From: an uncultured Clostridia bacterium
Lineage (GTDB): Bacteria > Bacillota > Clostridia > TANB77 > RGIG9151
Direction: 5' to 3'
DNA length: 32,000 bases
Assembly (NCBI GenBank): GCA_934500865.1
Contig: CAKSUD010000004.1
Span: forward strand, 191 to 32,190
The position numbers were made by a program, and so were the translations under genes. The notes under the pieces were generated by a model that made no database searches, had not been told where the DNA came from, and saw only the letters and a list, made by a program, of their open reading frames with translations. This document shows positions 16,270 to 32,000 of this stretch, piece by piece (the stretch's first letter is position 1; every line of letters starts with the position of its first letter).

Positions 16270-16275
16270 AATAGT

Positions 16276-16480
16276 ATAGAAAGAGAAAATTCCTGCGATG
16301 TACGAGGATAAGGATTATTTCAAACCAACACATTTTATATGGGATTCTGAAACTTTATGTATCGATTGTAGGCCCTCGCAATTTTGCGGAACGGGAAACG
16401 TGAGATACATAGGAGGAGACCCACCTGCACATGCAGGTTCCGAAATATCCTTGATAAACGGCATAGGCGGGAATTTTTTT
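16276..16480 (+). ncRNA. Rod-shaped structured small RNA of about 200 nt; 6S RNA (ssrS)-like candidate
   Basis: Nested long-range helices. P1 is 16288-16296/16467-16475 (9 bp including a U-G wobble that only works on the + strand). P2 is 16310-16321/16442-16452 (11 bp, one bulge). P3 is 16356-16363/16404-16411 (8 bp). The apical hairpin is CGCA-AUUU-UGCG (16377-16388). A large internal bubble has its own 3'-side hairpin CCTGCA/TGCAGG (16424-16437). P1 runs into T7 (16474-16480). The region is locally GC-richer than the flanks and has no credible ORF. Confidence 0.45.
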
Positions 16481-16520
16481 GTGTGACCATTAGGGACGGT
16501 TCTTTTTGGTCAAGATAAAA

Positions 16521-16568
16521 AATAGCCACAATTCGCTAAGTAAGTGAGTTGGGGCTATTCGTATTTTC
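16521..16568 (+). terminator. Second hairpin plus T-tract downstream of the RNA (possible back-up terminator or 3' extension)
   Basis: AATAGCCACAA (16521-16531) / TTGGGGCTATT (16549-16559) with one mismatch, followed by CGTATTTT. Confidence 0.4.
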
Positions 16569-16722
16569 AGACCTGTCCCAAATGGTCAATGCGGTTAACC
16601 AAATGAATAGAGATGAAAAATTAATTTTAAATCTTGCTACAAATTAATATTTTTGTGTATACATCACATAAAATAATGTGATAAAATGTTTATGCAAAAA
16701 TAATTATTTGTGGAGGTGGAAG

Positions 16723-17055
16723 ATGGAGTATTTAGAATTGATTTTTTTGTTTATAGTGGCACATGTGTTTGGTGATTATGTTTTCCAAGGTGAGTATATT
16801 GCAACTACAAAATCAAAGAACTATTACCATTTATTTGTGCATTGTATAATATACACATTTTGTTTTTGGTGTGTATTTTTTTATTTGAATAAAATAAGCT
16901 TTGCATTACTTATGCTAATCTTTGCGTCTCATTTTATTATAGACCTAGCCAAGGGAATATTAAACACAAAAAAACCAAGCAATTCAAAACTATATTATGC
17001 CATTGACCAATTGTTGCATTATGCAGTAATTTTGCTAATAATATTTGTTGTTTAG
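16723..17055 (+). CDS. Small polytopic membrane protein, DUF3307-like
   Basis: AHVFGDYVFQ (HxxxDxxxQ) near the N-terminus and a second SHFIIDLAKG motif. 3-4 hydrophobic helices. The ATG at 16723 follows GGAGGTGGAAG; the GTG at 16678 in the track has no SD. Confidence 0.55.
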   Translation: MEYLELIFLFIVAHVFGDYVFQGEYIATTKSKNYYHLFVHCIIYTFCFWCVFFYLNKISFALLMLIFASHFIIDLAKGILNTKKPSNSKLYYAIDQLLHYAVILLIIFVV

Positions 17056-17099
17056 TGAGCTAGTGATCAAAGTGTAACGTATATATGAAAGGTGAGAAT

Positions 17100-18266
17100 A
17101 TGGAATTTAACGATTTAATAAATAATGTTTCTGTACAGAAATTTTTTGGAATAGCGGATATTTCAAAAATTCCTAATGAAACAATGGAACTAATTAGACT
17201 GCTTGAATATTGTAAGTTTAATAAAGACGAGAACATAGTTACATATGGTGCTGAAGCTGAAGACGGAATGTATATAATTATAAGCGGAAGTGCAACTGTG
17301 CTAAGTAGCAGTAATAAAATAATTGGGAAGATGAAAAGCGGTGGGTTTGTCGGTGAAATGGCTCTTATTTCCGGTAAAAAGCGCTCAGCTACAGTAAGAG
17401 CGGATGAACCACTTCAAGCCGTAAGGATTTCCAGAGCTTTATTTAATGATGTTTTAAAAAAGAATCCGGATTGTTATGCGGTTTTTATGGAGACATTGTA
17501 TGCAAACTTGACTAATGTTATTTCTGAACAGCAGAGATTAAAGGCTGAGCTTGATATTGCTAAAAAAATTCAAGAAAGTTCATTACCTAAGAAATTTGAC
17601 AATTTAGGGATAGAGATATGTGCAACTATGACTCCTACAAAAGAGGTTGGTGGCGATTTTTACGATATATTTAGAGTGGATGATAAACATATTTGTATGC
17701 TTATAGCTGATGTATCCGGTAAGGGAATATCTGCCGCGTTATTTATGCTTATGGCAAAAACGGTAATTAAAAATTATGCCAAGCTAAATATTCCGGTAAA
17801 TGAGGTGTTTGAACATGCAAATAATGAATTGTGTGAAAACAATGATGCCAATATGTTTGTTACATCTTTTATGGGGATTTTAAATACCGAGACCGGAGAA
17901 TTTAGATATGTAAACGCAGGTCATAATTTACCAATTATTTTGAAAGAAGGAAGCAGTGCTGAGTTCATTCAAGCAAAGCCCGGATTCGTTCTTGCAGGTA
18001 TGGAAAACATTAAATACAAGGAAAATACAATGCAACTTGGCAAAGGTGACGCGATATTTATGTACACAGATGGGGTCACAGAGGCACAAGATAAAAATGA
18101 TGAGCTGTTTTCTGATGAAAGGTTACTAGGATTATTTGGAACTAAAGCCTATAATAAAATGGCGGTCAGAGATATTTTGGCAGATGTGCACGCTGAAATT
18201 GACAAACATAGTTTTGGCATAGAACAGTCAGACGATATTACAATGCTTATGTTTAGAAGGAGCTAA
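17100..18266 (+). CDS. Cyclic-nucleotide-binding domain fused to a PP2C (SpoIIE/RsbU-type) serine phosphatase
   Basis: CAP-type cNMP-binding signature GGFVGEMALISGKKRSATVRA. PP2C/SpoIIE motifs VGGDFYD, IADVSGKGISAALFM, MYTDGVTEA and QSDDITMLM. The ATG at 17100 follows AAAGGTGAG. Confidence 0.85.
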   Translation: MEFNDLINNVSVQKFFGIADISKIPNETMELIRLLEYCKFNKDENIVTYGAEAEDGMYIIISGSATVLSSSNKIIGKMKSGGFVGEMALISGKKRSATVRADEPLQAVRISRALFNDVLKKNPDCYAVFMETLYANLTNVISEQQRLKAELDIAKKIQESSLPKKFDNLGIEICATMTPTKEVGGDFYDIFRVDDKHICMLIADVSGKGISAALFMLMAKTVIKNYAKLNIPVNEVFEHANNELCENNDANMFVTSFMGILNTETGEFRYVNAGHNLPIILKEGSSAEFIQAKPGFVLAGMENIKYKENTMQLGKGDAIFMYTDGVTEAQDKNDELFSDERLLGLFGTKAYNKMAVRDILADVHAEIDKHSFGIEQSDDITMLMFRRS

Positions 18267-18279
18267 AGGAGGCAAAAAT

Positions 18280-18687
18280 ATGTCTAATTTGATTATTGAA
18301 GCAAACAAAACGAATTTAGACAAAGTAATTGAATTTGTCAATGGAGAATTGATGAAGTTGCCTTGTACCGATGAATTAAAAACCAAGTTAAATATTGCCG
18401 TCGAAGAAATATTTGTGAATATTTCAAGCTATGCATATAACGAACACGGCGAAGTGGAGATAAACTGTAACGTAAATAAAGATGATTTTATGTTTGAAGT
18501 TGAATTTAAGGATATGGGAAAACCTTATGACCCGCTTGAGCGAACGGATCCGGATATATCTAAGGGGATAGATGAGAGAGAAATTGGTGGCTTGGGAATT
18601 TTTATGACAAAACAATTCATGGATGATATTGAGTATAGATATGAGGGCAATAAAAATGTTTTAATTATAAGAAAGAAGATTAAATAA
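18280..18687 (+). CDS. RsbW/SpoIIAB-type anti-sigma regulatory kinase (HATPase_c_2-like)
   Basis: 135 aa. N-box-like EEIFVNISSYAY. G-box-like GGLGIFMTKQFMDDIEY. AAGGAGG SD. Starts 13 nt after the phosphatase stop. Confidence 0.7.
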   Translation: MSNLIIEANKTNLDKVIEFVNGELMKLPCTDELKTKLNIAVEEIFVNISSYAYNEHGEVEINCNVNKDDFMFEVEFKDMGKPYDPLERTDPDISKGIDEREIGGLGIFMTKQFMDDIEYRYEGNKNVLIIRKKIK

Positions 18688-18702
18688 GGGGGAAGAAATT
18701 AA

Positions 18703-20253
18703 ATGAAGAAATGGATGTGTGCGGTAGTTTTTTTAGCAATTGTGACAGGAAACGCCTTTGCAAATAGCTTTGACGTAGAATACATAAGCATAAAGGACGA
18801 AATCGAAGCTGAGAATTCTATTAAAAGAGAAGATTTTTTTGCTATGATAGGCTCTATAAGTGGCAAAAATGCAGGTGATGAATTAAACTATATTTTTGAG
18901 GATGACGATGAAATTGAACCTAGATATAAAAAGTATGTTTATTCATTGGCTAATGACAATATTATAAGCGGAGAGAATACTAACGATAAATTTTACTTAC
19001 AGCCCAAAAGAAAAATTACAAGACTAGAAGTTGCTGTAATAATAACAAAAGCTTTAGGAATATATTCTACATCGCCTTGCGAATTTGCCGATACTGATAT
19101 ACCGGCATGGGCAAACGATTATATTTATACTGCTATTAATTTTGGAATAATGAATTTAGATTCAAACGGATATTTTAATGCAAAAGCAACTGTAACATTA
19201 GAAGAAGCATCCGAAATGTTAGAAAATGTAGTAGGTAAAGGATATTTTGAAGAAAACAAGGCTACTATATATGCCGGAAATGGTATATCTTCTTTAAACG
19301 ATGGAGAATTAGGTGATTCAAGCTTTTTTGCTCCGATGGGCATTATAAAGTATAAAGATGCCATTTATGTGGCTGATACTAAAAATAATTCAATAAGAGA
19401 AATTAAGGAAAATATAGTTTCTACAGTAGCTGGAAATTTTGATGCAAGAGATGAATTTGAAGTTGCTATTGGGAGTTTTGCTGATGGAAATAAAGCTAAA
19501 TTCGATGCCCCTTCATTTTTAGCAACTCCAAAAACCGGATTACTAATTTCAGATACAAATAATAACTTGATAAGATACTTTATAAGAGGTAAGGTTTCTA
19601 CATATGCCGGAAATGTAAACGGGGGATATAAGGACGGAAAAAGAACTAAGGCTTTATTTAATAATCCTACCGGAATTGTGGCTACAAATAAAGGAATAGT
19701 TTATATTGCCGACACAGGCAATAACGTTATAAGAAAGATAGATAGAAATGATAATGTTACTACATATGCAGGAGTAGTATCGAGTGAGGGCGGATACAAA
19801 GACGGAAACGCGAGAGAAGCAATGTTTAACAGACCTATGGGACTTGTGCTAAAAGGTGATGTTTTATATGTCGCAGATTGTGGTAACCAAAGAATAAGAA
19901 AAATCGAAAACGGAAAGGTTTCTACTATTGCAGGTGTTGGAGATGAAAAATACGATGATTCAAATGAAATTATAGGAGATTACATTGACGGAACAACAGA
20001 GGATGCCAGATTTAATTTCCCACAGAACATTGCAATAGATGAGGAAGGAAACATATATGTTGCAGACACAGGAAATTCTGTAATAAGAAAAATAGATAAA
20101 GATGGGAATGTTTATACAATTGCCGGATTGTCTAAAAATGATGAGGTTGAAATTGTAAGCCCTGTTGGGTTAATGATTGACGAAAACAAGTTATATGTTA
20201 CTGATACAGTGAAAAATAATATTATTGTAATTGACATAGAGGAGGCGAAGTAG
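18703..20253 (+). CDS. Secreted cell-wall-associated protein: signal peptide, SLH-like domains, NHL-repeat beta-propeller
   Basis: Signal peptide MKKWMCAVVFLAIVTGNAFA. SLH-like units (ITRLEVAVIITKALG; FADTDIPAWANDYIYTAINFGIM...VTLEEASEML). At least six NHL-type repeats (YVADTKNNSIREI, LISDTNNNLIRYF, YIADTGNNVIRKI, YVADCGNQRIRKI, YVADTGNSVIRKI, YVTDTVKNNIIVI). Confidence 0.8.
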   Translation: MKKWMCAVVFLAIVTGNAFANSFDVEYISIKDEIEAENSIKREDFFAMIGSISGKNAGDELNYIFEDDDEIEPRYKKYVYSLANDNIISGENTNDKFYLQPKRKITRLEVAVIITKALGIYSTSPCEFADTDIPAWANDYIYTAINFGIMNLDSNGYFNAKATVTLEEASEMLENVVGKGYFEENKATIYAGNGISSLNDGELGDSSFFAPMGIIKYKDAIYVADTKNNSIREIKENIVSTVAGNFDARDEFEVAIGSFADGNKAKFDAPSFLATPKTGLLISDTNNNLIRYFIRGKVSTYAGNVNGGYKDGKRTKALFNNPTGIVATNKGIVYIADTGNNVIRKIDRNDNVTTYAGVVSSEGGYKDGNAREAMFNRPMGLVLKGDVLYVADCGNQRIRKIENGKVSTIAGVGDEKYDDSNEIIGDYIDGTTEDARFNFPQNIAIDEEGNIYVADTGNSVIRKIDKDGNVYTIAGLSKNDEVEIVSPVGLMIDENKLYVTDTVKNNIIVIDIEEAK

Positions 20254-20255
20254 AA

Positions 20256-21434
20256 ATGATATTAAAGAAGATTGCTTTATTTACTGCTTTTATAATGATA
20301 ATTACGAGTTTCTCTTTTGCAGCAGAAGTGGCAAATGGAAAAACAATAAGGCTTGAAATGTATACCGGTAGCGTAGAAGTAAAAAGTGGAAGTGGAAAAG
20401 AAATAAGTGCAACTGAAAAAATGAGGGTTTTTGACGGATATACTGTAAAAACACTAAGTGATTCAGAAGCGTATTTTTCTCTTGACGATACAAAGGCCGT
20501 AAAGCTTGGCGCGAATACGGAAATAAAGATTAAGAAAAGTTGGTTTTCTAATAAAATAGCAGTTATTTCCGGAGAATTATTTTTTAATGTTACTAAGCCT
20601 TTAGGCAGTAATGAAAGTTTAGAAATTTCTACTCCGACAATGTCAATGGGAATTAGGGGTACAAGCGGTTGTGTTATTGTAAATGATAAGGGAGCAAAGG
20701 CACAAATATATACGGGTAAGGTAGAAGGCTCTAGAGGCAATGCAAAAGTTCATATTAATGCCGGAGAACAGGCAATAGCAACTACCGGTTTGCAACTATC
20801 TAAATTGAAACAAGATGGTAGTGAAATTCCATCTATGGCACTTAGAGAGATAGTTAAAGATAGCAAGTTGGCTAATGAGATAAAGGAAAAAACAGAATTA
20901 AATGTAGATAATTTTACTGAGCAAGAAAAAGAGAATTCGGCTCGTGAACAGGAAATAAGTGAGAAAAAGGTGGAGGAGCTAGAGGAGGCTCGTGAAATAG
21001 CTAATAAAGAAAAAACAGAAAACAAGAAAAGTAGTACGGTTAACAGGTCTGTCACCGGAAAGAGTTCAGGCGGTTCAAAATCTTCACTTCCTCAATTGAC
21101 ATGGGAGATAGTAATGAATTGGATAGAAGTAAATTCTGACGTAGGGCTTGACGATTTTGTCAAATTTGCAAGTGGATATAGTTCCGGATTAAATATTAGC
21201 GGATACAATAAGTTAGATGAATACGGAAAAATGGGTGTAGAAAATGATATGATCGTGGATAGCACAGATGTTGGTACGATTAGGCACATTAATAATTTGA
21301 GATACTATGATACTGTTGAGAACTTGGCATCAGCGTTTAATGAATCAGTGGCTAACAATACAATAGCGCCAACAGAATCACCAGCGCCAACGGATTCACC
21401 GGCACCAACAGAGTCACCTGCAACTGATGTATAA
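20256..21434 (+). CDS. Secreted FecR-domain protein with coiled-coil linker and Pro/Thr/Ser-rich tail
   Basis: Signal peptide ending FAAEV. FecR-like block YTGSVEVKSGSGKEISATEKMRVFDGYTVKTLSDSEAYFSLDDTKAVKLGANTEIKI. E/K-rich segment. C-terminal (APTxSP)x3. Starts 2 nt after the upstream stop. Confidence 0.7.
   Translation: MILKKIALFTAFIMIITSFSFAAEVANGKTIRLEMYTGSVEVKSGSGKEISATEKMRVFDGYTVKTLSDSEAYFSLDDTKAVKLGANTEIKIKKSWFSNKIAVISGELFFNVTKPLGSNESLEISTPTMSMGIRGTSGCVIVNDKGAKAQIYTGKVEGSRGNAKVHINAGEQAIATTGLQLSKLKQDGSEIPSMALREIVKDSKLANEIKEKTELNVDNFTEQEKENSAREQEISEKKVEELEEAREIANKEKTENKKSSTVNRSVTGKSSGGSKSSLPQLTWEIVMNWIEVNSDVGLDDFVKFASGYSSGLNISGYNKLDEYGKMGVENDMIVDSTDVGTIRHINNLRYYDTVENLASAFNESVANNTIAPTESPAPTDSPAPTESPATDV
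21366..21419 (+). repeat. Three imperfect tandem 18-bp repeats encoding APTESP-APTDSP-APTESP
   Basis: gcgccaacagaatcacca / gcgccaacggattcaccg / gcaccaacagagtcacct, read directly from the sequence. Confidence 0.8.
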
Positions 21435-21446
21435 TTAAATTAGGAG

Positions 21447-23249
21447 ATGATACATATAAAGAAGTATATTGTTTGCACTTTATGTGCGGTTATGTCTATA
21501 ATTATTTTCTTAAGTGGTGTGCTAAGTAGAATAGAAGTCAACTTATCAGATATGTTTTTTCAGTCGGAGAGTGTCTTAGACGGAAATATTGCGCTTATTG
21601 AGATAGATTCAAAAAGCCTTTCCGAGCTCGGCCCTTTTCAGTCTTGGCCGAGAACATATATGGCGGATGTTATAAATATATTAAATTCAGATGAGAATGT
21701 AAAACCTGCTGTAATCGGCATCGACGTTATGTATTTTGGAAATACAACTAAAGAAGCAGATGATGCATTAGTAGAGGCTTGTAAAATTGGAAAGAATGTT
21801 GTTACAGGCAGTTTGGTTAACTTTGATTCTAAGTTAGTAAGCGATGAAAATGGTACTTTTTATATGGATAATAACTACGTAAAGCAAGTAGAAGAACCAT
21901 ATGACGAGCTTAGAAATGTTATTAAATATGGGCATCTTAACACAAAAGTAGATAGTGATGGTGTAGTAAGACGAAGTATAAATTCCATAAAGTTACCTAG
22001 TGGCGAAGAAATGAGAAGTTTTGCATTTGAAGTTTATAGGATGTTCTCTGAGAAAACAGGAGAAAGTGTGAATTATGATATTCCAACCGATACAAATGGC
22101 GAGTTTTATATCCCGTATTCAGCTAAGGTTGGCGGATTTTCTGATGGAATTTCATTTGTAGACGTTCTTAATGGGGAAATTAATCCGGATATTTTTGAAA
22201 ATAAGATAGTTTTAATAGGACCATATGCGGCAGGTCTTATGGATAACTATATAGCGGCAATCGATCATAACGAGCAAATGTATGGAATGGAAATACAGGC
22301 CAATATAATAAATACATTAATAAGTGGCAATTTCAAAACTTATGTTCCAAAGTGGGTTCAATGTATTTTGATTGGTGTTATTGTTTTTATTATGACAATT
22401 ATCTTTGAGAAGAGCAGTCTAAAGAAATCTTTTATAGCACTGATGATTGGAATAGTAGGATATTCAGGATACATATGTGCGCTTTATCATTTGGGTGGAA
22501 AGATATCTGATGTATTATGTGTACCATTATTCATAACACTTATTTATATTGCCTTTATTGTAAAAAAATATGTTAAAGTCATTTTAGAGAAAAGGAAGGT
22601 TGAGGGGACATTTAAGAGATATGTTGCACCTCAAGTTGTAGATAAGATTATAAAGGACGGAATTGATAATATAGAACTTGGCGGAAAGAAAACTGATATT
22701 GCGTGCCTGTTTGTAGACATTAGAGGGTTTACCCCTATGTCAGAGGCACTAGCTCCTGAAGAAGTTGTGGGGATATTGAACGAATATTTAAGTCTTACAA
22801 GTTCTAGTATATTTAATAATGAGGGAACTCTAGATAAGTTTATCGGAGATGCAACAATGGCTATATTTAATGCACCTTTACCACTAGATGATTATATATT
22901 TAAAGCGGTAAAAACTGCATGGGATATTGCAAAAGGTTCTGAAGAACTTTCAAAGAAATTACAGACTAAATTCGGTAAAACAATAAGCTTCGGAATTGGT
23001 GTTAATTGTGGACCAGCGGTTGTTGGCAATATTGGTACAGAAAAACGAATGGACTATACAGCAATCGGTGATACAGTAAATACTGCAGCACGTTTAGAAT
23101 CGAATGCGAAACCTGGGCAAATACTTATAAGTAAAGCTGTATATGATGCGCTAAGTGACAGAATAACAGCGACATCTATCGGCGAAATACCTCTAAAGGG
23201 AAAGAGCAAGGGCGTGGAAGTTTTTGTTGTTGAAAATATTGTTTGCTAA
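21447..23249 (+). CDS. CHASE2 sensor domain / transmembrane / class III nucleotide (probably adenylate) cyclase
   Basis: N-terminal TM, then the CHASE2-like block IALIEIDSKSLSELGPFQSWPRTYMADVINIL...VIGIDVMYF. Three hydrophobic helices. Cyclase motifs CLFVDIRGFTPMSE, LDKFIGDATMAIFNAP and AIGDTVNTAARLES. The SD (AGGAG) abuts the ATG, so the exact start is uncertain. Confidence 0.85.
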   Translation: MIHIKKYIVCTLCAVMSIIIFLSGVLSRIEVNLSDMFFQSESVLDGNIALIEIDSKSLSELGPFQSWPRTYMADVINILNSDENVKPAVIGIDVMYFGNTTKEADDALVEACKIGKNVVTGSLVNFDSKLVSDENGTFYMDNNYVKQVEEPYDELRNVIKYGHLNTKVDSDGVVRRSINSIKLPSGEEMRSFAFEVYRMFSEKTGESVNYDIPTDTNGEFYIPYSAKVGGFSDGISFVDVLNGEINPDIFENKIVLIGPYAAGLMDNYIAAIDHNEQMYGMEIQANIINTLISGNFKTYVPKWVQCILIGVIVFIMTIIFEKSSLKKSFIALMIGIVGYSGYICALYHLGGKISDVLCVPLFITLIYIAFIVKKYVKVILEKRKVEGTFKRYVAPQVVDKIIKDGIDNIELGGKKTDIACLFVDIRGFTPMSEALAPEEVVGILNEYLSLTSSSIFNNEGTLDKFIGDATMAIFNAPLPLDDYIFKAVKTAWDIAKGSEELSKKLQTKFGKTISFGIGVNCGPAVVGNIGTEKRMDYTAIGDTVNTAARLESNAKPGQILISKAVYDALSDRITATSIGEIPLKGKSKGVEVFVVENIVC

Positions 23250-23339: not shown

Positions 23340-25226
23340 ATGGGAAGAATTTTGAAACTATTTAACAACATAAAGTCAAGCAAAAGATGGAGAAGAAACA
23401 GTGACTTATATCAAGATGTGGTAAATACTATGCAGTCTTATACAGAGCAAATGGATAAACCGGTTACGGAGGAAAGTGCAAAGAAATTATACAATATATC
23501 TAAGGCATTAAAAAATAAAGCAGACTTATATTTAGCTTCTAGGAAAAATCCTAGAACTTCAAAAGGGAAAGCTAGATTTAGCATGATACAAGAAATTGCT
23601 AATTTAAATTCTATGCCGGATGAATTAAGAGACCCTATAAAGGTAGAAGCTTTAAGAAAAGATGGCAAAAAACTAAGTGACATTGTTGATGAGGTTAGAA
23701 ACAATAATGCTGTGGATATAACGAACCAAGCTAATAAAAAAGTTTACGGTGCAGGTGCTAGTAAAAGAGTTAGATTCGACTATATGGGAAGAAACGGATT
23801 TTTTACAGGAAAGCAAAAAGTAGAGGATATAACAGTAGTTGTGGCTAGAGAACGTGAAAGGCTTGAGAAAGAAAAGAAAGCAATATTTGAAAGAATGAAA
23901 GCAAGTGGAATGTTACGGGCAGCAGAAACACCGAGCATTGTAGAAAATAAAAGTACTCAACAGATTATATCCTCTTTGGCTACTACAGCTGGTAAAGAAA
24001 TTAGTGATTTTAACGAAGAAGAAATTCGAGCCATTGTTGATTATCATAAAGAAATAAGCAAAGCAAATAATATGCAGGAAACCGCAATGGAAACAGCCGG
24101 TATAGTAGCTGATTCTGAGGTGAGCAAACGAAATGTTGCTACTTCAAGAATGGCACATATGCTTCAAATGGGGCAAAACGTAGCCTTTTCTGAAAATGTT
24201 ACCGTTATAGACAATGGAGTTAAGATGGAAGGTTCTTTTATGGCAGCGGCAGTAGGATATGATAGTAGAAGTGAAGCCGGAATGGAATTTATGGCTGATA
24301 AAGAGTTCGATTTTACAGCTCCAAGTTTACAAAGAGATATTAACAGAATGCAAGTGTTTGATATGCTTTGTGGTCAAATAGATAGACATGGTGGAAATTT
24401 CTTTTATCAAGTTGCACCTAACCCGGTAAATGGGAAGTATGTAATTACGGGCTTACAAGGAATTGATAATGATATGTCATTTGGTAATACTAACTTAAAC
24501 AGATGGAGAGGTCAAATGACACCGATTAGGGAACTTAATGCTATTGATGAGGATGTATTACAATCTTTAAGAGAACTTACACCTGAACAAATAGAGTATA
24601 CTATGGGCGATCTACTTAGTAAACAAGAAGTTGATGCCGTTATTGAGAGAAGAAATCAAATTTTAGAACATGTGGATGCCGGAAAGGCTAAAATTGTAAA
24701 GTCTGATGAATGGGGCGAAAAAACTATTCCATTAATGGAAGAAAGTTCATACTATAAAGAAATTAAAAAAGAAGTTTCTTTATCAAAAGTTTCGCTAGAA
24801 CAGAAGCATGATGCAATTGTAGACGACTATGATGATGCTGTTAAGAGGATAGAGGAATATAATGAGAAACATCCTGAAGATGAACAAGAACTTCCAATAA
24901 AGCCGGAACATTATGATGAATATAGGTTAGACAGAGGAAGACGCCAAATGGAAGCGCTAAAAGAAAAATATGAAAAGACTATGACAGATTTTGAAGCGGA
25001 GGCAAGACAGGCGGCTAAAGAAGGTAAACCTATGCCAAAAGTACCGGAAGGATATGAATATTATAGAAAAGATAGAGAAAATAAGGAAATGATGGAGATG
25101 GCAAAGGAAACAACTGAGCGCAAAGAAATATCATTAGATGAGCTTTCAGGAAGCCCGACACAAGTAACACGTATGACCCCAGCAACACCATCTAAAGTTA
25201 AAGAAATGGAAGGATTAAATAAATAA
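23340..25226 (+). CDS. 628-aa soluble protein with a PI3/PI4-kinase-like (type II PI4K-like) catalytic core and a charged repeat-containing C-terminus
   Basis: Catalytic-loop-like FDMLCGQIDRHGGNFFYQ (DRHGGN encoded at 24381-24398). DFG-equivalent GIDNDMSFG (24459-24485). Upstream block SKRNVATSRMAHMLQMGQNVAFSENVTV...MEGSFMAAAVG resembles the RE-AA...LG...VP-T ... GSFQ-F block of type II PI4 kinases. The ATG at 23340 lies 7 nt after AAGGGGGA. No signal peptide or TM. Confidence 0.5.
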   Translation: MGRILKLFNNIKSSKRWRRNSDLYQDVVNTMQSYTEQMDKPVTEESAKKLYNISKALKNKADLYLASRKNPRTSKGKARFSMIQEIANLNSMPDELRDPIKVEALRKDGKKLSDIVDEVRNNNAVDITNQANKKVYGAGASKRVRFDYMGRNGFFTGKQKVEDITVVVARERERLEKEKKAIFERMKASGMLRAAETPSIVENKSTQQIISSLATTAGKEISDFNEEEIRAIVDYHKEISKANNMQETAMETAGIVADSEVSKRNVATSRMAHMLQMGQNVAFSENVTVIDNGVKMEGSFMAAAVGYDSRSEAGMEFMADKEFDFTAPSLQRDINRMQVFDMLCGQIDRHGGNFFYQVAPNPVNGKYVITGLQGIDNDMSFGNTNLNRWRGQMTPIRELNAIDEDVLQSLRELTPEQIEYTMGDLLSKQEVDAVIERRNQILEHVDAGKAKIVKSDEWGEKTIPLMEESSYYKEIKKEVSLSKVSLEQKHDAIVDDYDDAVKRIEEYNEKHPEDEQELPIKPEHYDEYRLDRGRRQMEALKEKYEKTMTDFEAEARQAAKEGKPMPKVPEGYEYYRKDRENKEMMEMAKETTERKEISLDELSGSPTQVTRMTPATPSKVKEMEGLNK

Positions 25227-25233: not shown

Positions 25234-25269
25234 AAAAAAGTGGCGATTAATTTTAATCGCTACTTTTTA
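25234..25269 (+). terminator. Rho-independent terminator after the kinase-like gene
   Basis: AGTGGCGATTA (25239-25249) / TAATCGCTACT (25254-25264), 11 bp with one G-U, loop ATTT, followed by TTTTT. Confidence 0.75.
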
Positions 25270-25333: not shown

Positions 25334-25362
25334 TTGACAAGAAGTTTCAATTTCGGTATCAT
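25334..25362 (+). promoter_or_regulatory. Consensus-like sigma-A promoter of the element-borne sigma factor gene
   Basis: TTGACA (25334-25339), 17-nt spacer, TATCAT (25357-25362). The TTG taken as start codon in the ORF track is the -35 hexamer. Confidence 0.55.
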
Positions 25363-25372
25363 TATGTGTGGG

Positions 25373-25876
25373 ATGGTGACGATTTTGGTCGATTTTGAAA
25401 AAGTATACGAAGAGTATTTTTCGAAAATATATAACTTTATGTTTTATAAAGTGCTAAATAAGGAAATAGCAGAAGACCTTACAAGTGAGTTCTTTATAAA
25501 ACTTTTAACTAAACTTAATACCTTTGATGAATCGAAAGCCAATTTAAACACTTGGCTTTATACTGTTGCCCGAAATAGTGTTATAGACTATTTTAGATGG
25601 CACAAAATAGAAATGTCGGTAGATGACCAAGATAATCCGATTGAACTTCCTGTTGATTATGAATTAGAGAAAAACATTATAGAGAGTGAAGATAGAAAAG
25701 CTTTGTATGAAGCTTTAACTAAAGTTGAGGATAGAACAAGAAAATTATTGTCACTTAAATATTTTTTGGATATGTCAAATAAGGAAATATCTAGTGTTAC
25801 AGGTATAAATGAAAGTACTGTTTCTACTATATGTTTACGTGGAATAGAAAAAATTAAAAAACATTTACATATTTGA
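25373..25876 (+). CDS. Sigma-70 family (ECF-like, two-domain) RNA polymerase sigma factor
   Basis: Region 2 (AEDLTSEFFIKLL..., NTWLYTVARNSVIDYFR). Region 4 HTH (LSLKYFLDMSNKEISSVTGINESTVSTICLRGIEKIKKHL). The start is uncertain: ATG 25373 would be nearly leaderless from the promoter above, and TTG 25385 lies 5 nt after GGTGA. Confidence 0.8.
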   Translation: MVTILVDFEKVYEEYFSKIYNFMFYKVLNKEIAEDLTSEFFIKLLTKLNTFDESKANLNTWLYTVARNSVIDYFRWHKIEMSVDDQDNPIELPVDYELEKNIIESEDRKALYEALTKVEDRTRKLLSLKYFLDMSNKEISSVTGINESTVSTICLRGIEKIKKHLHI

Positions 25877-25925
25877 GCTTATTTATAAAATTTATCGTAT
25901 ATATCTATGAAAGGTGGTGTGCTGG

Positions 25926-26135
25926 ATGCTGAATGACAAAAAGTATGATTTTTCTGAGGAAACAAATATAAAGAAAAAATTATATGAAGAATGTATGAAT
26001 AAGAAAAAAGAACTGGAAAATCAGCAATCGGCACGCAGACCGGTTAGCTTAGATGAACTTGAGAATATAACTATTACAAGAATAGATAAGAATAAAGGTA
26101 ATGATAAAGAAATAAAAATAGATAAAGAGAAATAA
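25926..26135 (+). CDS. Small (69 aa) highly charged Lys/Glu-rich protein, function unknown
   Basis: The ATG at 25926 lies 8 nt after AAGGTGG. No TM and no recognisable motif. Position immediately after the sigma factor. Confidence 0.45.
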   Translation: MLNDKKYDFSEETNIKKKLYEECMNKKKELENQQSARRPVSLDELENITITRIDKNKGNDKEIKIDKEK

Positions 26136-26164: not shown

Positions 26165-28204
26165 ATGGGCGATATTTTTAAGAAAATAAGAAATTGGGGA
26201 ATAACAGTTATATTGGTATCTACAGTTTTAGGATATTCAATAAGAATGTTGCTTGAAAATTATGAGCTTACCATAAATGCTTTTAAAACTAAAGAATATG
26301 CCACACTTTTTAAGCCGGAATTATTTTTAGAATTAAATACATATGGATATGGATTGCTTTTAATTGCTTTGATGGTGGTACTATATTTTGTATTTTCAAA
26401 TGATGCGACAAGGAAATCTAAGAGAATGTTAAAAACTAAAGCGAAGGGCGTAGAGGGAGCTTTAGAAAATTCGAGATTCTTAACAGATAAAGAACGCGAT
26501 GACTTATTTAAGCCATATAAATACAGTAAACTAAACACAGTGAAGAAAGACGGCGTTCCGGTTAGAGCTGTTGTGAGCGGAAAGGATATGGAAGTTAATT
26601 TATCTGCTCCAATGCATGGGCTTATAATTGGTGCTACCGGAAGTGGTAAAACAACTACATTTATAAATCCGATGATACAGATTTTAGGTGAATCATCTGC
26701 CGGTTCTTCAATGATTATGACAGACCCTAAGGGCGAACTTTTCCAAATGCATAGTCAAAAGCTTAAGGAAAAAGGCTATAAAGTTATGGTATTGGATTTA
26801 AGAGATCCATATTCTTCATATAGATGGAATCCGCTTGAAGACATTTACGACAGGTATCAAGAATATGTTTCTTACGGTAAAGGAATTTTTAGCCGTGGAG
26901 ACAGTCCTGTTGACTCTGGATTAGAACTTACAGCTCCTGCTGATAGTTTTGAAGCCTTTTGGTTTGAGTATGAAGGGAAGGCATATCCTAATAAAAAATC
27001 AGTTTTAGCAGTTGTAAAAAGTAAAAGACAAAAGATATATGATGAGATATATGAGGATTTAAATGATTTGGTAAGTGTACTTTGCCCGATTGAGTCAAAG
27101 GATGACCCTGTTTGGGAGAAGGGTGCTAAATCCATAATAATGTCTACATTACTTGCGATGCTAGAGGATTCAGAAGACCCTGAACTTGGTATGACAAAAG
27201 AGAAGTTTAATTTCTTTAATGTCAATAAGGCAATTTCTAATTCAGAAGATAATTTTGCTGCTTTAAAAAGATATTTCCAAGGCAGAAATAAGTTATCAAA
27301 GGCAGTAACTTTAAGCCGTCAGGTTCTAAGTGCTGCAGATAATACATTATCAAGTTATATGTCAATTGCATTTGACAAAATGTCTATGTTTAATGACGAA
27401 GGAATTTGTGCACTAACTTCCGCAACAGATATTAATCCGGATGATTTTGCTGATCAACCGACAGCATTATTTATGAAAATACCTGATGAAAAGGATACAA
27501 GACACGGTCTCGCAGCGGTATTTATATTATGCATATATAAGGCACTAATTAAAAAGGCATCTGCTCGTGAAGATTTATCACTACCTAGAAATGTTTATTT
27601 CATACTAGATGAATTCGGAAATATGCCTAAAATTGAAAAGTTCGATAAGATGATTACAGTAGGACGTAGCAGAAAAATTTGGTTTAATATGGTAGTTCAG
27701 TCTTATGCACAACTTAATAATGTTTATGGTGATACTGTTGCAGATATTGTAAAGAGTAACTGTGGTATAAAGATGTTTATTGGTTCTAATGATATAGGAA
27801 CTTGTAAAGAGTTCTCTGAACTTTGCGGAAATATGACAGTTACAACTAACAGTATTTCAGGCTCAACAGGAGATAAGAGTGGGCAGGTAAATTATTCTAC
27901 TCAAGTTCAGACAAGACCACTTATTTATCCTTCTGACTTGCAAAAGCTTAATAATTCTAAAGAAATGGGAAATGCAATTATTGTAACTTTTGGTAATTAT
28001 CCGTTAAAAACAAAATTTACACCTAGCTTTAAATGTCCTATGTATAAAATGGGATGCATGGACTTAGCTGAAGCAAGAAGTAATGTTTTCTTCTCTGATG
28101 AAGTGTTTTATGATTTAGAAGCAAGAAACCAGATTATCTTAAAAAGGCAAGAAGAAGCCGAAAAGCAAAGTGAGGAAGTAGAAGAAAGTTTAGACGAGGA
28201 ATAA
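26165..28204 (+). CDS. Type IV secretion coupling protein (VirD4/TraG family ATPase)
   Basis: Two N-terminal TM helices. Walker A GATGSGKT. Walker B and family block FILDEFGNMPKIEKFDKMITVGRSRKIWFNMVVQSYAQLNNVYG. Acidic C-terminal tail. Confidence 0.85.
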   Translation: MGDIFKKIRNWGITVILVSTVLGYSIRMLLENYELTINAFKTKEYATLFKPELFLELNTYGYGLLLIALMVVLYFVFSNDATRKSKRMLKTKAKGVEGALENSRFLTDKERDDLFKPYKYSKLNTVKKDGVPVRAVVSGKDMEVNLSAPMHGLIIGATGSGKTTTFINPMIQILGESSAGSSMIMTDPKGELFQMHSQKLKEKGYKVMVLDLRDPYSSYRWNPLEDIYDRYQEYVSYGKGIFSRGDSPVDSGLELTAPADSFEAFWFEYEGKAYPNKKSVLAVVKSKRQKIYDEIYEDLNDLVSVLCPIESKDDPVWEKGAKSIIMSTLLAMLEDSEDPELGMTKEKFNFFNVNKAISNSEDNFAALKRYFQGRNKLSKAVTLSRQVLSAADNTLSSYMSIAFDKMSMFNDEGICALTSATDINPDDFADQPTALFMKIPDEKDTRHGLAAVFILCIYKALIKKASAREDLSLPRNVYFILDEFGNMPKIEKFDKMITVGRSRKIWFNMVVQSYAQLNNVYGDTVADIVKSNCGIKMFIGSNDIGTCKEFSELCGNMTVTTNSISGSTGDKSGQVNYSTQVQTRPLIYPSDLQKLNNSKEMGNAIIVTFGNYPLKTKFTPSFKCPMYKMGCMDLAEARSNVFFSDEVFYDLEARNQIILKRQEEAEKQSEEVEESLDEE

Positions 28205-28271: not shown

Positions 28272-28589
28272 ATGAATAACTTTTTAACAATGTTATTACC
28301 TTTAACTAAAGTAAATCCTTTTGAAGGAGTTTCTAAACCAATAATAGATTTACTTAACATGGTTATGGGACCATTAATCGCAGTAGTTGGTGCTGTAGGT
28401 GCTATTTATTGCGTTATTTTAGGAGTTAAACTTGCTAAGGCAGAAGAACAGCAAGATAGAGAAAAGGCTAAGACAGCATTAAAAAATGCAATAATTGGAT
28501 TTGTTCTAATTTTCGTTTTAGTAGTGGCATTAAAAGTAAGCTTACCATTATTTGAACAATGGATGGCTTCAGCTGCATCTGGTAATTAA
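28272..28589 (+). CDS. Small two-TM membrane protein, pilin-like (VirB2/TrbC-like architecture) conjugation component candidate
   Basis: 105 aa. Hydrophobic helix, charged loop (KLAKAEEQQDREKAKTALK), second hydrophobic helix. Strongest SD in the cluster (AAAGGAGG). Immediately followed by a strong terminator. Confidence 0.45.
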   Translation: MNNFLTMLLPLTKVNPFEGVSKPIIDLLNMVMGPLIAVVGAVGAIYCVILGVKLAKAEEQQDREKAKTALKNAIIGFVLIFVLVVALKVSLPLFEQWMASAASGN

Positions 28590-28693: not shown

Positions 28694-29782
28694 ATGAAAA
28701 AATACTATTGGGTTAATAAATTTATTGTTATACTTTTAATTTATGGAATTTTTATGGGATACAGCATTTCGTATGCTGAAAATGAAACTGAAAATGTCAT
28801 GGTGGAGGAAGAAGTAAGTACGCCACCTGTTACAGATAAATCTATTGAGCGTACATATGACGCTCAAAAAGGAATGTATAGGTATGCACTTTCGAAAAAT
28901 ACCGTTTTTTCATCTAGTGTGCCAAATGGAATAATAACTAATGGTGAAGTATATATTGATATTTCCGACAAAGTTGCATACAGCTTTACAAGAAACGGAG
29001 AGAAGTACAATTATTCACGTGGTGAAGCTATTGATGAAGATGGTGTATATAGACTTACGGTTACTGTAAATAATACTTCTGACCTTAAATTTGATTTTTC
29101 AAATTTAAATTTTTCTCTTGATTCACTAGATGGTATGCAAGGCGGAGAAAATGAGACAGAGCAAATAACAGAAACTAAAAATTCAGAGGTTACTGTTACG
29201 GACGAAGCTTGGGGCTTGGCCAATGGTACAGTGTTTGAATTTAAGTTTAGAATTATAAATAAAGCTTGTAACAATATAAATATATTCAACTTACCTCAAG
29301 ATTATGCATTTGAATCAATAATTTTTGATGAAAATAATATTGAAAACGTAAAAAAACTAAATAGTTTTTCATTAAATGATGATGGTAAGTATGTTTTTTC
29401 TATATATGATACAAAAAATCCAAAGAAAAAATTTACTACTGAAATAATTCTAAAAACTAACCTTCCAATATTAAAAATTCAGGGAGTGGTAAATGGGCTT
29501 ACAACGTATGACTCGGTGGTAATAGATACATATGAAAGTGATGTTACTTATACAGCCACTTGTAATGGCGAAACAATAAGACCGTATGGCGGTGCTTTTT
29601 CAGAGGCAGGACTTTATTCGGTTAAGGCTAAAGACGAAGCGGGGAATACGAATGAATACACTTTTAGAATACTTTACACAATGAATTTGTCTAGCGGAAC
29701 AGTTATTGCTATTGTTGTGATTATTATAATTTCATTGGTTGGATATGTAGTATATCTAAAGAAACATATGAGAGTATATTAA
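28694..29782 (+). CDS. Exported protein with N-terminal signal peptide and C-terminal TM anchor, unknown family
   Basis: Signal-like MKKYYWVNKFIVILLIYGIFMGYSISYA. C-terminal hydrophobic VIAIVVIIIISLVGYVVYL followed by KKHMRVY. Beta-rich, Asn/Thr-rich middle. No LPXTG motif. Confidence 0.55.
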   Translation: MKKYYWVNKFIVILLIYGIFMGYSISYAENETENVMVEEEVSTPPVTDKSIERTYDAQKGMYRYALSKNTVFSSSVPNGIITNGEVYIDISDKVAYSFTRNGEKYNYSRGEAIDEDGVYRLTVTVNNTSDLKFDFSNLNFSLDSLDGMQGGENETEQITETKNSEVTVTDEAWGLANGTVFEFKFRIINKACNNINIFNLPQDYAFESIIFDENNIENVKKLNSFSLNDDGKYVFSIYDTKNPKKKFTTEIILKTNLPILKIQGVVNGLTTYDSVVIDTYESDVTYTATCNGETIRPYGGAFSEAGLYSVKAKDEAGNTNEYTFRILYTMNLSSGTVIAIVVIIIISLVGYVVYLKKHMRVY

Positions 29783-29794: not shown

Positions 29795-31456
29795 ATGGGG
29801 GATACATTGACTAAATTCCTTATTTATCTTTGCTTTTTCTGCAAAATAGGTAACTGGATAAAAAATGCGTGGAATAAAATCGTAGATGCATTAAAAGAAG
29901 TTGCTAACTTTGTTACAGACCTAGCGGAGAAAGTAATAACATTTATATTTGATAAAGTGTTAGGACCGGTTATTGAGGCGGTTATCGAGCCTGTAATAGA
30001 GGCTGTACTGACAAAATTTAGTGAGTTGCTAAAAACTGCTGTAAGTACGATTATACCCCTTATAGAAAAGTTCCTTATAGACATAGCAGAACCGATATTT
30101 AACTTAGCCATATCTGTGCTTAATGCTATATGGACCCCCATAAATTTTGCAATTTTTACTGGAGCATTGAAGTTTATGGATTTGCTTGAAAATGTTTTTG
30201 ACATTTTCGCCGGAATTTCTGATGTTACATATAACGGAAGTAAAGATTTTTTACTTAATGTATTCTTTAAAAATAATGTAATAAATAGAGTGTTTTGGTC
30301 GGTAACATTAATTGCATTAGCTATTCTAGTTATTTTTACAATCATTGCAATAATTAAAAATATGAGCAATTTAGATGCAAAGCAAACAACCGGTCAAATA
30401 CTTGGTATGTCATGTAAAGCAATGATTATTTTATTCCTAATACCGTTTATGTCTTTAATTTTGCTTAATCTTTCATCTACGGTACTACGGAAAACAAGTG
30501 AAATTATTACACTTACACAAAGTGGTGAAAACAGTGCTAGTTTAGGTACATTGACATTTTTAACATTTACTATGGATGCGGCTCGAGATGATGAGTATAA
30601 CGGAAATGCTCCTCTTACTGATGAACTTAGAGCACCATATATGTCTGGCAAAAAAGATTATGCTATAAATGGTATGAACGATTTTGCAATTGAAAAAATA
30701 AATTACCTGTTAGCGTTTACAGTTTGCATTGTTATGATATTCATTATTGTTTTATGTGCAATTGTGTTCGTCGTTAAAATATTTGAAGTTTTGATTTTGT
30801 ATATAACTTCACCATTTTTTGTTGCGACCACCGTATTAGACGGTGGAGCTAAGTTCAAAGAATGGGCTAAGATGTTTATTGCAAAATTACTTGGTGGATT
30901 TGGAATGGTTATTGTTATGAAACTATTCTTTATAATTTCACCAATTGTTATGTCAGATAAGGTTGTATTTTCGCAAAATCCGCTTGCAAATTTACTGACA
31001 AAAACTTTGTTTATGATTGGTGGCTTATGGGCTGCTTATAAGTCCGGAAACCTTATTATACAAATTGTAAATATAAATGCAGCTTATCAAGAAGCTGGAC
31101 TTTCTAGCGAAATAGCCACAAGGGCAGTAAGAGCCGGAATAAAGTATGGCACAATTGCAGTAAAAGCAGTTGCTTCCGGTGGTGCTACGTTGGCAATGGA
31201 TGCAAAAAATATCGCCATAGATGTAGCAAAATCAGCTGGAAGCATGGTAATGAATGGCGAAGATAGTGGTGCTGAGAAAAAAGAAAAAAAGGAAAGTAAT
31301 GCGTTTAGAGGCGGAGGGGAAAATAAAGCTTCTAACCAACTGCAAAATCGTATTCAGCTAGGTGCACACAGAGACGGTGGAATGGCAGGAAAATTAGGAA
31401 ATAAAGATGGAATGACCGGTAAAGCTTCCGGTGCTAGCAAACTTTTGAAGAAATAA
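29795..31456 (+). CDS. Large polytopic membrane protein (VirB6/TrbL-like role candidate) with a Gly/Lys-rich tail
   Basis: An amphipathic N-terminal region with the short repeat PVIEAVIEPVIEAV. At least 6 hydrophobic helices. C-terminal low-complexity GGGENK...GKLGNKDGMTGKASGASK. An alternative TTG start at 29807 has better SD spacing (GGGGGA plus 4 nt). Confidence 0.55.
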   Translation: MGDTLTKFLIYLCFFCKIGNWIKNAWNKIVDALKEVANFVTDLAEKVITFIFDKVLGPVIEAVIEPVIEAVLTKFSELLKTAVSTIIPLIEKFLIDIAEPIFNLAISVLNAIWTPINFAIFTGALKFMDLLENVFDIFAGISDVTYNGSKDFLLNVFFKNNVINRVFWSVTLIALAILVIFTIIAIIKNMSNLDAKQTTGQILGMSCKAMIILFLIPFMSLILLNLSSTVLRKTSEIITLTQSGENSASLGTLTFLTFTMDAARDDEYNGNAPLTDELRAPYMSGKKDYAINGMNDFAIEKINYLLAFTVCIVMIFIIVLCAIVFVVKIFEVLILYITSPFFVATTVLDGGAKFKEWAKMFIAKLLGGFGMVIVMKLFFIISPIVMSDKVVFSQNPLANLLTKTLFMIGGLWAAYKSGNLIIQIVNINAAYQEAGLSSEIATRAVRAGIKYGTIAVKAVASGGATLAMDAKNIAIDVAKSAGSMVMNGEDSGAEKKEKKESNAFRGGGENKASNQLQNRIQLGAHRDGGMAGKLGNKDGMTGKASGASKLLKK

Positions 31457-31478: not shown

Positions 31479-32000
31479 ATGTTTAGATTTTTACCACTCA
31501 TAAGCATTAAGGACATTACAGGCGCAATTTTTGATGCAGTTGTAACGCCTGTCACAAATGCAGTTGGTAAAGTTATATCTACGGTACTTAATACTATTAT
31601 AAATGATGTATTAATGCCTATACTTGGACCATTTTTCAAGTCATTGGTTGAACCGATATTAGGAATTATCGGCGATTTGTTTATGGCTTGGATACATATA
31701 AAGTCATATTATTTATATGTAGCTGTTTTGAAAGTTATAGATGTATTAGAATATGCGTTTAACATCTTTGGTGGAGTAAGCGATGTTACAGTAGTGAAAA
31801 ACGGTCAAAAAAGCACAGACTTTTTACTTAATGTATTTTTTACAAACTCAGGTATTTCAAAGATTTTCTGGTCAATTACATTATTAGCATTTGCTGTGTC
31901 ATTAGTGTTTGGAATTATCGCGGTTATGAAATCTACTACCGACCTAGACGGTAAAAGGCCGGTAGGCAAAGTAATAGGTGCAATTGCAAAGACAGGACTT
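31479..32000 (+). CDS. Paralog of the preceding polytopic membrane protein, 3' end cut by window edge (absent from the ORF track)
   Basis: The ATG at 31479 follows AAAGAGGTGAG, and my own translation is open to nt 32000 (174 codons). LEYAFNIFGGVSDVTVVKNGQKSTDFLLNVFFTNSGISKIFWSITLLAFAVSLVFGIIAVMKSTTDLDGKRPVGKVIG aligns with LENVFDIFAGISDVTYNGSKDFLLNVFFKNNVINRVFWSVTLIALAILVIFTIIAIIKNMSNLDAKQTTGQILG in the 29795 gene. Confidence 0.65.
   Translation, partial: MFRFLPLISIKDITGAIFDAVVTPVTNAVGKVISTVLNTIINDVLMPILGPFFKSLVEPILGIIGDLFMAWIHIKSYYLYVAVLKVIDVLEYAFNIFGGVSDVTVVKNGQKSTDFLLNVFFTNSGISKIFWSITLLAFAVSLVFGIIAVMKSTTDLDGKRPVGKVIGAIAKTGL

Follow-up and report, generated by a model that had tools for sequence, protein, structure and literature searches.

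In Pseudomonas aeruginosa, the SiaABCD system consists of the PP2C phosphatase SiaA, the kinase SiaB, the switch protein SiaC, and the diguanylate cyclase SiaD (PMC7647112, PMC8457831). Phosphatase and small kinase act in opposition on a STAS-fold protein to set its phosphorylation state, and what the switch controls is an enzyme, not a sigma factor. In the HptB-HsbR-HsbA-HsbD system of the same species, an anti-anti-sigma (STAS) protein interacts with a diguanylate cyclase and connects the phospho-switch to cyclic di-GMP (c-di-GMP), pili, and motility (PMC5085249). The RsbU-RsbV-RsbW and SpoIIE-SpoIIAA-SpoIIAB switches of Bacillus combine a SpoIIE-type PP2C with a HATPase_c_2 kinase and a STAS protein that can be phosphorylated on a serine. 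Class III cyclases with a CHASE2 domain, encoded beside an extracytoplasmic FecR protein, form a known cluster in Campylobacterota (PMC9239204) and in the cyaD1 region of Sinorhizobium meliloti (PMC5498481). Here we analyze a 32,000-nucleotide stretch of contig CAKSUD010000004.1 from an uncultured Clostridia bacterium (assembly GCA_934500865.1, positions 191 to 32,190 of the forward strand; hereafter the window), in which five adjacent genes, g1 to g5, encode a predicted cyclic AMP (cAMP) generator together with a predicted cAMP receiver, a phosphatase of the partner-switching kind fused to a cyclic nucleotide monophosphate (cNMP)-binding domain. We consider it likely that this locus is a cAMP relay feeding a partner-switching phospho-switch.

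Like SiaABCD, the locus pairs a PP2C phosphatase, g1, with a small kinase, g2, and the PP2C model of g1 superposes on the SiaA-PP2C structure 6k4e with a TM-score of 0.85; g1 is nevertheless not a SiaA ortholog (it scores 49.6 bits with NF038263, whose cut-off is 700). Unlike SiaABCD, the window has a cytoplasmic cNMP-binding input and a co-encoded CHASE2 cyclase and FecR protein, and its cluster holds no GGDEF gene. The switch protein here is a classical STAS protein (PF01740), whereas SiaC falls in the Pfam family DUF1987. Relatives of the locus in human-gut Lachnospiraceae (hereafter the gut type) do share the four-part logic of SiaABCD, with PP2C, kinase, STAS, and GGDEF components, their GGDEF protein scoring 78 bits against 290 for SiaD. 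The STAS-GGDEF-PilT portion of these gut-type clusters is paralleled by HsbA-HsbD, but the HptB system takes its input from a phosphorelay that leads to a receiver domain rather than from cAMP, and it includes neither a cyclase nor FecR. The three protein families of the Bacillus switches are all represented; unlike in those switches, the cluster has no group 3 sigma factor, and a cNMP-binding input replaces the RsbT-binding or membrane domains. The described FecR-CHASE2 clusters contain a phosphodiesterase and a tetratricopeptide repeat protein, or the CRP-like regulator Clr, and none of them has a cNMP-PP2C protein, an RsbW-like kinase, a STAS protein, or a type IV secretion system (T4SS). 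The mycobacterial acetyltransferase Pat is an enzyme-coupled cAMP receptor with a cNMP-binding domain. As in Pat and eukaryotic PKA, the cNMP-binding domain of g1 is joined to a protein-modifying enzyme that it would control, not to a DNA-binding domain, but the predicted output differs, being serine dephosphorylation inside a partner switch. A weak NCBIfam match, NF058543, was also found for g1.

Domain calls in the window proteins are Pfam hits above the curated gathering scores. By this standard, g1 carries a cNMP_binding domain (PF00027, residues 44-127, 60.3 bits against a cut-off of 27.5) and a SpoIIE domain (PF07228, residues 199-392, 161.6 bits against 25). Among 20 family sequences, down to 41% identity, the phosphate-binding cassette residues G85, E86, R95, A97, and T98 and the PP2C metal-binding residues D186, D204, D324, D378, and D379 are invariant; the residue after the cassette arginine varies (S, G, or A), leaving no conserved threonine at that position. 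Cassette conservation was judged from two family alignments. The AlphaFold2 model of g1 (pLDDT 86.7) shows a cyclic nucleotide-binding beta-roll, a helical linker at about residues 117-166, and a PP2C fold. In Foldseek searches, the PP2C half was nearest to the partner-switch phosphatases RssB, Rv1364c, SiaA, SpoIIE, and RsbX, and the N-terminal half to cAMP-bound PKA-R, HCN, and CAP; no solved structure found by Foldseek covers both domains together. By sequence comparison with the PDB, the cyclic nucleotide-binding domain is nearest to PKA RI-alpha. We predict that g1 is a receiver of cAMP, a choice of ligand to which the lack of a conserved threonine after the cassette arginine and the adjacent ATP-type cyclase are indirect pointers. 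The architecture is abundant: a search returned 6,997 matches at E <= 1e-10, the best 120 of these 6,997 all have both domains, and individual cNMP-PP2C variants occur on more than 100 assemblies.

The second gene encodes the predicted GHKL serine kinase counterpart of g1. Its best PDB matches are RsbW (6m36) and SpoIIAB, with which the N-box E..N, DxG, and GGLG motifs align. Four proteins of 523-525 amino acids (P0014, P0016, P0017, and P0018), 60-64% identical to g1, are natural single-chain fusions in the order cNMP-PP2C-HATPase_c_2, the same order as g1-g2, which links g1 to g2. The five-gene operon contains no STAS gene. However, the window is extended by L166, a contig of the same species with 99.9% identity to it; about 21 kb downstream, where this co-directional cluster ends, L166 carries a STAS gene encoding 107 aa (19882-20205). 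In relatives, the STAS gene is adjacent to the switch genes. The L166 STAS protein is 49-55% identical to the in-cluster STAS proteins of other lineages and 20% identical to the SpoIIAA protein encoded elsewhere in the window; it matches the anti-sigma-antagonist family TIGR00377 (81 bits against a cut-off of 53), and its predicted phospho-serine, S62, is invariant among STAS orthologs. Together, these features suggest that g1 and g2 act as phosphatase and kinase in a partner switch whose substrate is the L166 STAS protein.

The generator side of the proposed relay is g5, in which CHASE2 (PF05226, 153.4 bits) spans residues 15-316 and is followed by a cyclase domain (Guanylate_cyc PF00211, 96.0 bits against a cut-off of 21.9). 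Hydrophobic segments at about residues 1-33 and 298-380 give the layout of a CHASE2 receptor, with one transmembrane segment, CHASE2, three transmembrane segments, and the cyclase. The catalytic set is complete, with D424 and D468 for metal, K464 and T538 for substrate, and N545 and R549 for the transition state. Adenylate cyclases, namely CyaC (1wc0) and P. aeruginosa CyaB (3r5g), are the best PDB sequence matches; the catalytic residues align with those of CyaB, whereas the guanylate cyclase Cya2 (2w01) has glutamate at the position of the g5 lysine. These motifs are kept in 35-37 of 37 unique orthologs. By its lysine/threonine signature, g5 is a predicted class IIIb adenylate cyclase and thus the predicted source of cAMP. 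The topology of g5 and the signal-like N-termini of g3 and g4 indicate that three of the five proteins face outward. g3, with SLH (41.4 bits) and NHL (87.5 bits) domains, is a candidate extracellular co-sensor; its orthologs adjoin FecR and cyclase genes in loci L003, L170/L172, L171, and L130, and in gut-type clusters another large extracellular protein takes its place. Wherever a locus has the cyclase and enough flank, a FecR gene adjoins the cyclase.

To follow these genes across relatives, we collected loci by their N-terminal cNMP region and annotated their genes by local phmmer with single-sequence queries; because no other region was used for retrieval, the sample is unbiased towards any neighbor. 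Co-occurrence was scored where the cNMP-PP2C gene has 5 kb or more of sequence on both sides, a partner being counted within 6 kb. We found a CHASE2 cyclase near the cNMP-PP2C gene in 41 of 44 loci and a FecR gene in 42 of 44. As a negative control, PP2C loci were taken from a species-representative genome scan with a full-length g1 alignment, a search keyed on the PP2C motifs that gave mostly generic PP2C loci; among the matches listed, which did not include the window's own species, loci whose PP2C lacks the cNMP domain had neither the cyclase (0/40) nor FecR (0/40). When receivers were grouped at 80% identity, FecR and cyclase accompanied 10 of the 15 clusters, and four of the other five had too little flank. 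Three distinct gene orders were seen. The window, L168, and L003 have PP2C-RsbW-SLH/NHL-FecR-cyclase; L170/L172, found from the cyclase side and 42-57% identical to the window in shared proteins, have VirB4-PP2C-STAS-SLH/NHL-FecR-cyclase-leucine-rich repeat protein-RsbW; and the gut type has a large extracellular protein followed by FecR-PP2C-cyclase-RsbW-STAS-GGDEF-PilT. The GGDEF motif of the gut-type protein is intact, and this core, adjoining the diguanylate cyclase and PilT, is very common in human-gut Lachnospiraceae. The cyclase/cNMP-PP2C pair is thus co-conserved among lineages diverged to 36-57% identity, and since linkage is kept despite this divergence and the shuffled order, generator, receiver, and kinase are co-inherited.

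An initial annotation of this DNA, made from the sequence, had claimed that a second-messenger generator and a dedicated receiver are encoded together, and the pair's conservation in 41 of 44 loci and its intact residues support this. The accompanying expectation that all five genes would be co-conserved held for the cyclase, FecR, and cNMP-PP2C genes; gene order is shuffled, and the SLH/NHL gene is replaced in the gut type. The annotation had further proposed an undescribed system. The combination of cNMP_binding and PP2C appears in a 2025 domain census without a functional study (PMC12088040). That census was the only mention in the literature we searched, where we found no functional study of a cNMP-PP2C partner switch and nothing specific on a partner switch linked to a T4SS. 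The components are all of known kinds, and a cAMP input to a partner switch is already catalogued, though uncharacterized; what would be new is the wiring, in which a partner switch has its own cAMP input and is tied to either a T4SS or the synthesis of c-di-GMP.

In the mechanism we favor, the CHASE2 domain of g5 would sense an extracellular cue, probably together with the FecR protein g4 and the wall-anchored propeller of g3, and this cue would set the activity of the adenylate cyclase. cAMP would bind the cNMP domain of g1, and the helical linker would relay the change to PP2C activity, which may rise or fall. g1 would dephosphorylate, and g2 would phosphorylate, the single-domain STAS protein at its conserved serine, and the free or bound state of the STAS protein and g2 would then set the output, which is the least certain step. 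In the window's lineage, the output would be a minimal T4SS (VirD4, pilin, three VirB6-like proteins, and VirB4), an extracytoplasmic function (ECF) sigma factor, or both; in gut Lachnospiraceae, it would be the GGDEF diguanylate cyclase with the PilT ATPase. These candidate targets of the switch, ECF sigma and T4SS here and GGDEF/PilT in the gut type, are drawn from gene context alone.

Several observations weigh against a cAMP relay of this form. cNMP-type domains of the CRP/FNR superfamily are able to bind other ligands. The STAS gene lies far from g1 and g2 here, with a strong terminator and a separate promoter-like site between them, and the cluster of this lineage (window plus L166) is without a GGDEF gene. 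Generator and receiver also occur apart: L171 has the cyclase and no PP2C within the 16 kb examined, L151 has a cNMP-PP2C without a cyclase within 5 kb, and L001 keeps g1, g2, and the STAS gene after losing the cyclase, so the switch can exist without it. Finally, the sampled loci are phylogenetically non-independent, and their annotation relied on single-sequence phmmer searches.

For Clostridia, the functions of cAMP are essentially uncharted, and this locus offers a concrete candidate pathway comprising a cyclase, a receiver, a kinase, and a STAS substrate. The GGDEF/PilT neighbors in gut Lachnospiraceae suggest a direct link from cAMP to c-di-GMP that would control pili or surface behavior, and the T4SS link, if functional, would be a new form of control over secretion or DNA transfer in Gram-positive bacteria. 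If the proposed wiring is true, it would provide post-translational second-messenger control of a Gram-positive T4SS and, in abundant gut commensals, a converter of cAMP into c-di-GMP signals.

The T4SS genes occupy 26165-32000 in the window and continue in L166 at 11685-18452. After p616, L166 encodes p730 (with a CBM_6 domain), a VirB4-like ATPase, a 264-aa protein resembling substrate-binding proteins (SBP), an Rce1-like protease, and the STAS protein. p553, p616, and p730 are three VirB6-like paralogs (MMCAP2_0566_fam, 208, 203, and 154 bits against a cut-off of 90), and the ATPase scores 584 bits with VirB4_plasma, marginally below the equivalog threshold of 590. The component set of a Gram-positive minimal T4SS (VirD4-, VirB4-, VirB6-, and pilin-like) is therefore present, as in the T4SSs of Mollicutes and Gram-positive integrative and conjugative elements (ICEs; Mbov_0395-0397, CD1110/CD1115), which have VirD4, VirB2 pilin, VirB6, and VirB4. 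Unlike those, the block lies inside a chromosomal signaling cluster, and among the genes from position 23.3 kb to the STAS gene, Pfam and NCBIfam detected no relaxase, integrase, or DDE recombinase, with proteins of 73, 362, and 173 aa left unannotated. T4SS genes also occur beside PP2C and STAS genes in other layouts: L170/L172 and L086-L090 combine VirB6-like genes, VirB4, cNMP-PP2C, and STAS; L027 has PP2C, a T4SS pilin, STAS, and RsbW together; and L056 has T4SS genes beside an Oscillospiraceae PP2C without the cNMP domain. Because of this recurrence, we take the T4SS of this lineage to be, probably, either an output of the switch or a partner to it, as judged from gene context.

Between the cyclase and the T4SS lies g6, which also follows the cyclase in L003 and L168. 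By sequence, it gave weak matches only to Fam20C and SCO1664, and a PDB sequence search gave nothing. Its family has 38 members and is lineage-restricted, with distant members carrying PI3_PI4_kinase; D348, R349, and N353 (DRHxxN) and D376, N377, D378, F381, and G382 (IDND..FG) are invariant. Foldseek matched the AlphaFold2 model (pLDDT 81) to PI4KII alpha/beta (E = 2e-4) and to Helicobacter pylori CtkA, so that the structural kinase matches come from the predicted fold alone. g6 could be a cargo or a regulator of the T4SS. As a separate observation, its fold relative CtkA is a secreted kinase. Tentatively, and with more doubt than we attach to the relay itself, we propose that the cassette of surface protein, FecR, CHASE2 cyclase, cNMP-PP2C, RsbW-like kinase, and STAS protein directly gates a relaxase-less T4SS, with g6 as a possible cargo or regulator, and that gut Lachnospiraceae re-plugged the cassette onto a diguanylate cyclase and PilT.

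Alternatively, the output could be a classical anti-sigma switch, in which g2 would hold a sigma factor (for example, the ECF factor at 25.3-25.9 kb) and cAMP-controlled g1 would free it via the STAS protein, leading to T4SS transcription. This is a sub-variant of the relay model with a transcriptional output. The best family and structure matches of g2 are indeed the anti-sigma factors RsbW and SpoIIAB, and the ECF sigma gene, which has its own near-consensus promoter-like site, heads the T4SS block and is conserved in L003, L166, and L168. In gut-type and L170/L172 clusters, however, there is no sigma gene inside the cluster; the ECF-like match that lies about 3-5 kb past PilT in some gut-type loci looks unrelated, and the gut-type g2 ortholog adjoins the STAS and GGDEF genes. 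RsbW-type anti-sigma factors, moreover, have group 3 or housekeeping sigma factors as their partners and are not known to act on ECF factors. On balance, we regard a sigma factor as the target of g2 as rather unlikely.

A natural deletion bears on a further explanation, incidental co-location, according to which the FecR-cyclase-g6-sigma-T4SS genes are an accessory or ICE-derived block inserted between the PP2C/RsbW genes and the STAS gene, and cAMP acts elsewhere, for example on a CRP-type regulator. L001, whose g1 protein is 82% identical to that of the window, has a clean 18.5-kb deletion that begins inside g3 (window position 19613) and reaches as far as the VirB4 3' end (L166 18315). At its junction (12514/12519), the first ~303 codons of g3 run into the 3' end of VirB4; the genes for FecR, cyclase, g6, sigma factor, and T4SS are gone, and g1, g2, and the STAS gene are retained. 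L002 encodes a g1 protein identical to that of L001 and has an intact g3, so we interpret the difference as a strain-level polymorphism. The absence of the whole block from L001, next to a full-length L002 with the same receiver, could be taken as the uninserted state, and the T4SS genes do belong to families from Mollicutes and Clostridioides difficile conjugative elements. The junctions of L001 fall inside g3 and VirB4, however, which marks a deletion and not an empty attachment site. Pfam and NCBIfam searches showed neither integrase nor relaxase in the cluster, and GC content is flat throughout this region (about 33% in the window). In gut-type clusters without any T4SS, the cyclase still adjoins the cNMP-PP2C gene; in L170/L172, the whole set is found again, rearranged and at about 55% identity; and the listed control loci, with PP2C but no cNMP domain, had no cyclase. 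We therefore judge ICE insertion unlikely, and incidental co-location as a whole improbable. The deletion strain offers a ready natural comparison for the T4SS link. Genes for the 264-aa SBP_bac_3-like protein and the CPBP/Rce1-like intramembrane protease (L166 18464-19878), which in the window's lineage invariably lie ahead of the STAS gene, survive the L001 deletion.

It is most improbable that the locus is a Pycsar-like anti-phage system, in which an infection-triggered cyclase acts on a cNMP-binding effector: PADLOC does match PycC (91 bits) to the g5 cyclase domain and PycTIR (57.6 bits) to the g1 cNMP domain, but these matches cover shared domains only and are no better than generic Pfam models, instead of a cytosolic, standalone pyrimidine cyclase there is a membrane-spanning CHASE2 receptor that has FecR as its extracellular partner and carries a CyaB-like lysine/threonine ATP signature, the effector domain is that of a PP2C with a cognate kinase and STAS protein rather than a TIR, transmembrane, or membrane-disrupting protein, and the cluster sits in conserved chromosomal synteny (recG-glgA...) and is coupled to GGDEF/PilT in relatives.

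The features of the locus are collected in Table 1. The coordinates given in the initial annotation for g1-g5 are exact, the genes being co-directional between 17100 and 23249 with gaps of 13, 15, 2, and 12 nt (reported as 2-15 nt); the motifs it quoted are all in the translations, and the eight domains it predicted were all recovered by profile searches above Pfam cut-offs. A Shine-Dalgarno sequence precedes each of the five genes. g1 has two possible starts (17085/17100-18266), of which the ATG at 17100 is the likely one because it yields 388 aa, the length of the closest homologs. A plus-strand terminator scan of 17.1-23.25 kb gave a single weak 6-bp hairpin inside g5, with a site count no higher than the shuffle expectation, and no terminator lies between g5 and g6. 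A strong hairpin comes only after g6, at 25235-25268 (15-bp stem with a U-tract, -17.9 kcal/mol, z = -6.35, none of 200 shuffles folding equally well), and was flagged by the scan on the minus strand as well. For these reasons, g1-g6 are probably transcribed together in a unit of six or seven genes that ends near 25.25 kb. The single transcript proposed for the five genes fits their co-direction and the lack of a strong internal terminator, but its extent was probably set too short. Likewise, the view of these five genes as the whole system captured the core, but the STAS gene lies outside it, g6 is probably to be added, and the T4SS is co-inherited.

Table 1. Annotated features of the signaling cluster and T4SS block in the window
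Feature	Coordinates	Strand	Evidence or remark
DUF3307 membrane protein	16724..17055	+	Pfam DUF3307, 70.1 bits; 44 nt before g1
g1: cNMP-binding domain, helical linker, SpoIIE/RsbU-type PP2C phosphatase	17100..18266	+	Pfam, AlphaFold2, Foldseek
g2: RsbW/SpoIIAB-like GHKL serine kinase (predicted)	18280..18687	+	HATPase_c_2, 81.2 bits
g3: SLH and NHL beta-propeller protein, predicted secreted and cell-wall-anchored	18703..20253	+	Pfam; N-terminal hydrophobic segment
g4: FecR-domain protein, predicted secreted	20256..21434	+	FecR, 50.0 bits; signal-like N-terminus
g5: TM-CHASE2-3TM-class IIIb adenylate cyclase (predicted; TM, transmembrane segment)	21447..23249	+	Pfam CHASE2, Guanylate_cyc
g6: soluble atypical kinase-like protein (PI4KII/CtkA-like)	23340..25226	+	Motifs, AlphaFold2 fold, Foldseek
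Hairpin with A- and U-runs, likely bidirectional intrinsic terminator	25235..25268	no strand	15-bp stem
ECF-type sigma factor	25334..25876	+	Sigma70_r2, r4_2; TIGR02937, 106 bits
73-aa small open reading frame	25914..26135	+	No family match in Pfam or NCBIfam
VirD4-like coupling protein	26165..28204	+	T4SS-DNA_transf, 180 bits; conju_CD1115, 295 against 250
VirB2-like T4SS pilin	28272..28589	+	T4SS_pilin, 38.6 bits; Mbov_0395 family, 57.8 against 40
362-aa protein, TM segments at both ends	28694..29782	+	No match above curated cut-off in Pfam or NCBIfam
VirB6-like paralog 1 (p553), polytopic	29795..31456	+	MMCAP2_0566_fam, 208.6 against 90
VirB6-like paralog 2 (p616), 5' part	31479..32000	+	Runs past window end

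The transcript may begin with the DUF3307 gene, which stands 5' of g1 only in L168 (94% identity) and L001 (66%) and is absent from L003; we rejected it as a member of the system, as it is confined to close relatives. Downstream of the hairpin, the sequence TTGACA-17-TATCAT, which fits 11 of 12 consensus positions, lies at 25334-25362, in the 5' end of the open reading frame of the ECF sigma factor. The true start of this gene is probably near 25364; relatives are called at 149-170 aa. This sigma-70-type promoter-like site abuts the probable coding region (25364-25876), and a very short leader, or none, is possible. At the position of the 73-aa open reading frame, after the sigma gene, a 69-aa gene is conserved in L003, L166, and L168.

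Among other loci, L173 (6360-13320), also reached from the cyclase side, encodes a methyl-accepting chemotaxis protein, an 80-aa protein, a FecR protein of 645 aa, a CHASE2 cyclase, a standalone 185-aa cNMP-binding protein with a canonical phosphate-binding cassette, and a sortase. The Anaerotignum-like L171 (1-13407) has three very large FecR-domain proteins (>1193, 1453, and 744 aa), followed by a CHASE2 cyclase and an SLH/NHL protein. Elsewhere in the window, a spoIIAA (STAS)-spoIIAB (HATPase_c_2)-sigF-like operon at 2787-4396 on the plus strand is a genuine sporulation partner switch; the source is a spore-forming, Clostridia-type organism. A structured region of 450 nt 5' of the operon was considered as a riboswitch and rejected, as it corresponds to 6S (SsrS) RNA, which lies on the plus strand at 16287-16477, between glgA and DUF3307/g1 (Rfam RF00013, 86 bits against a gathering score of 46.4).

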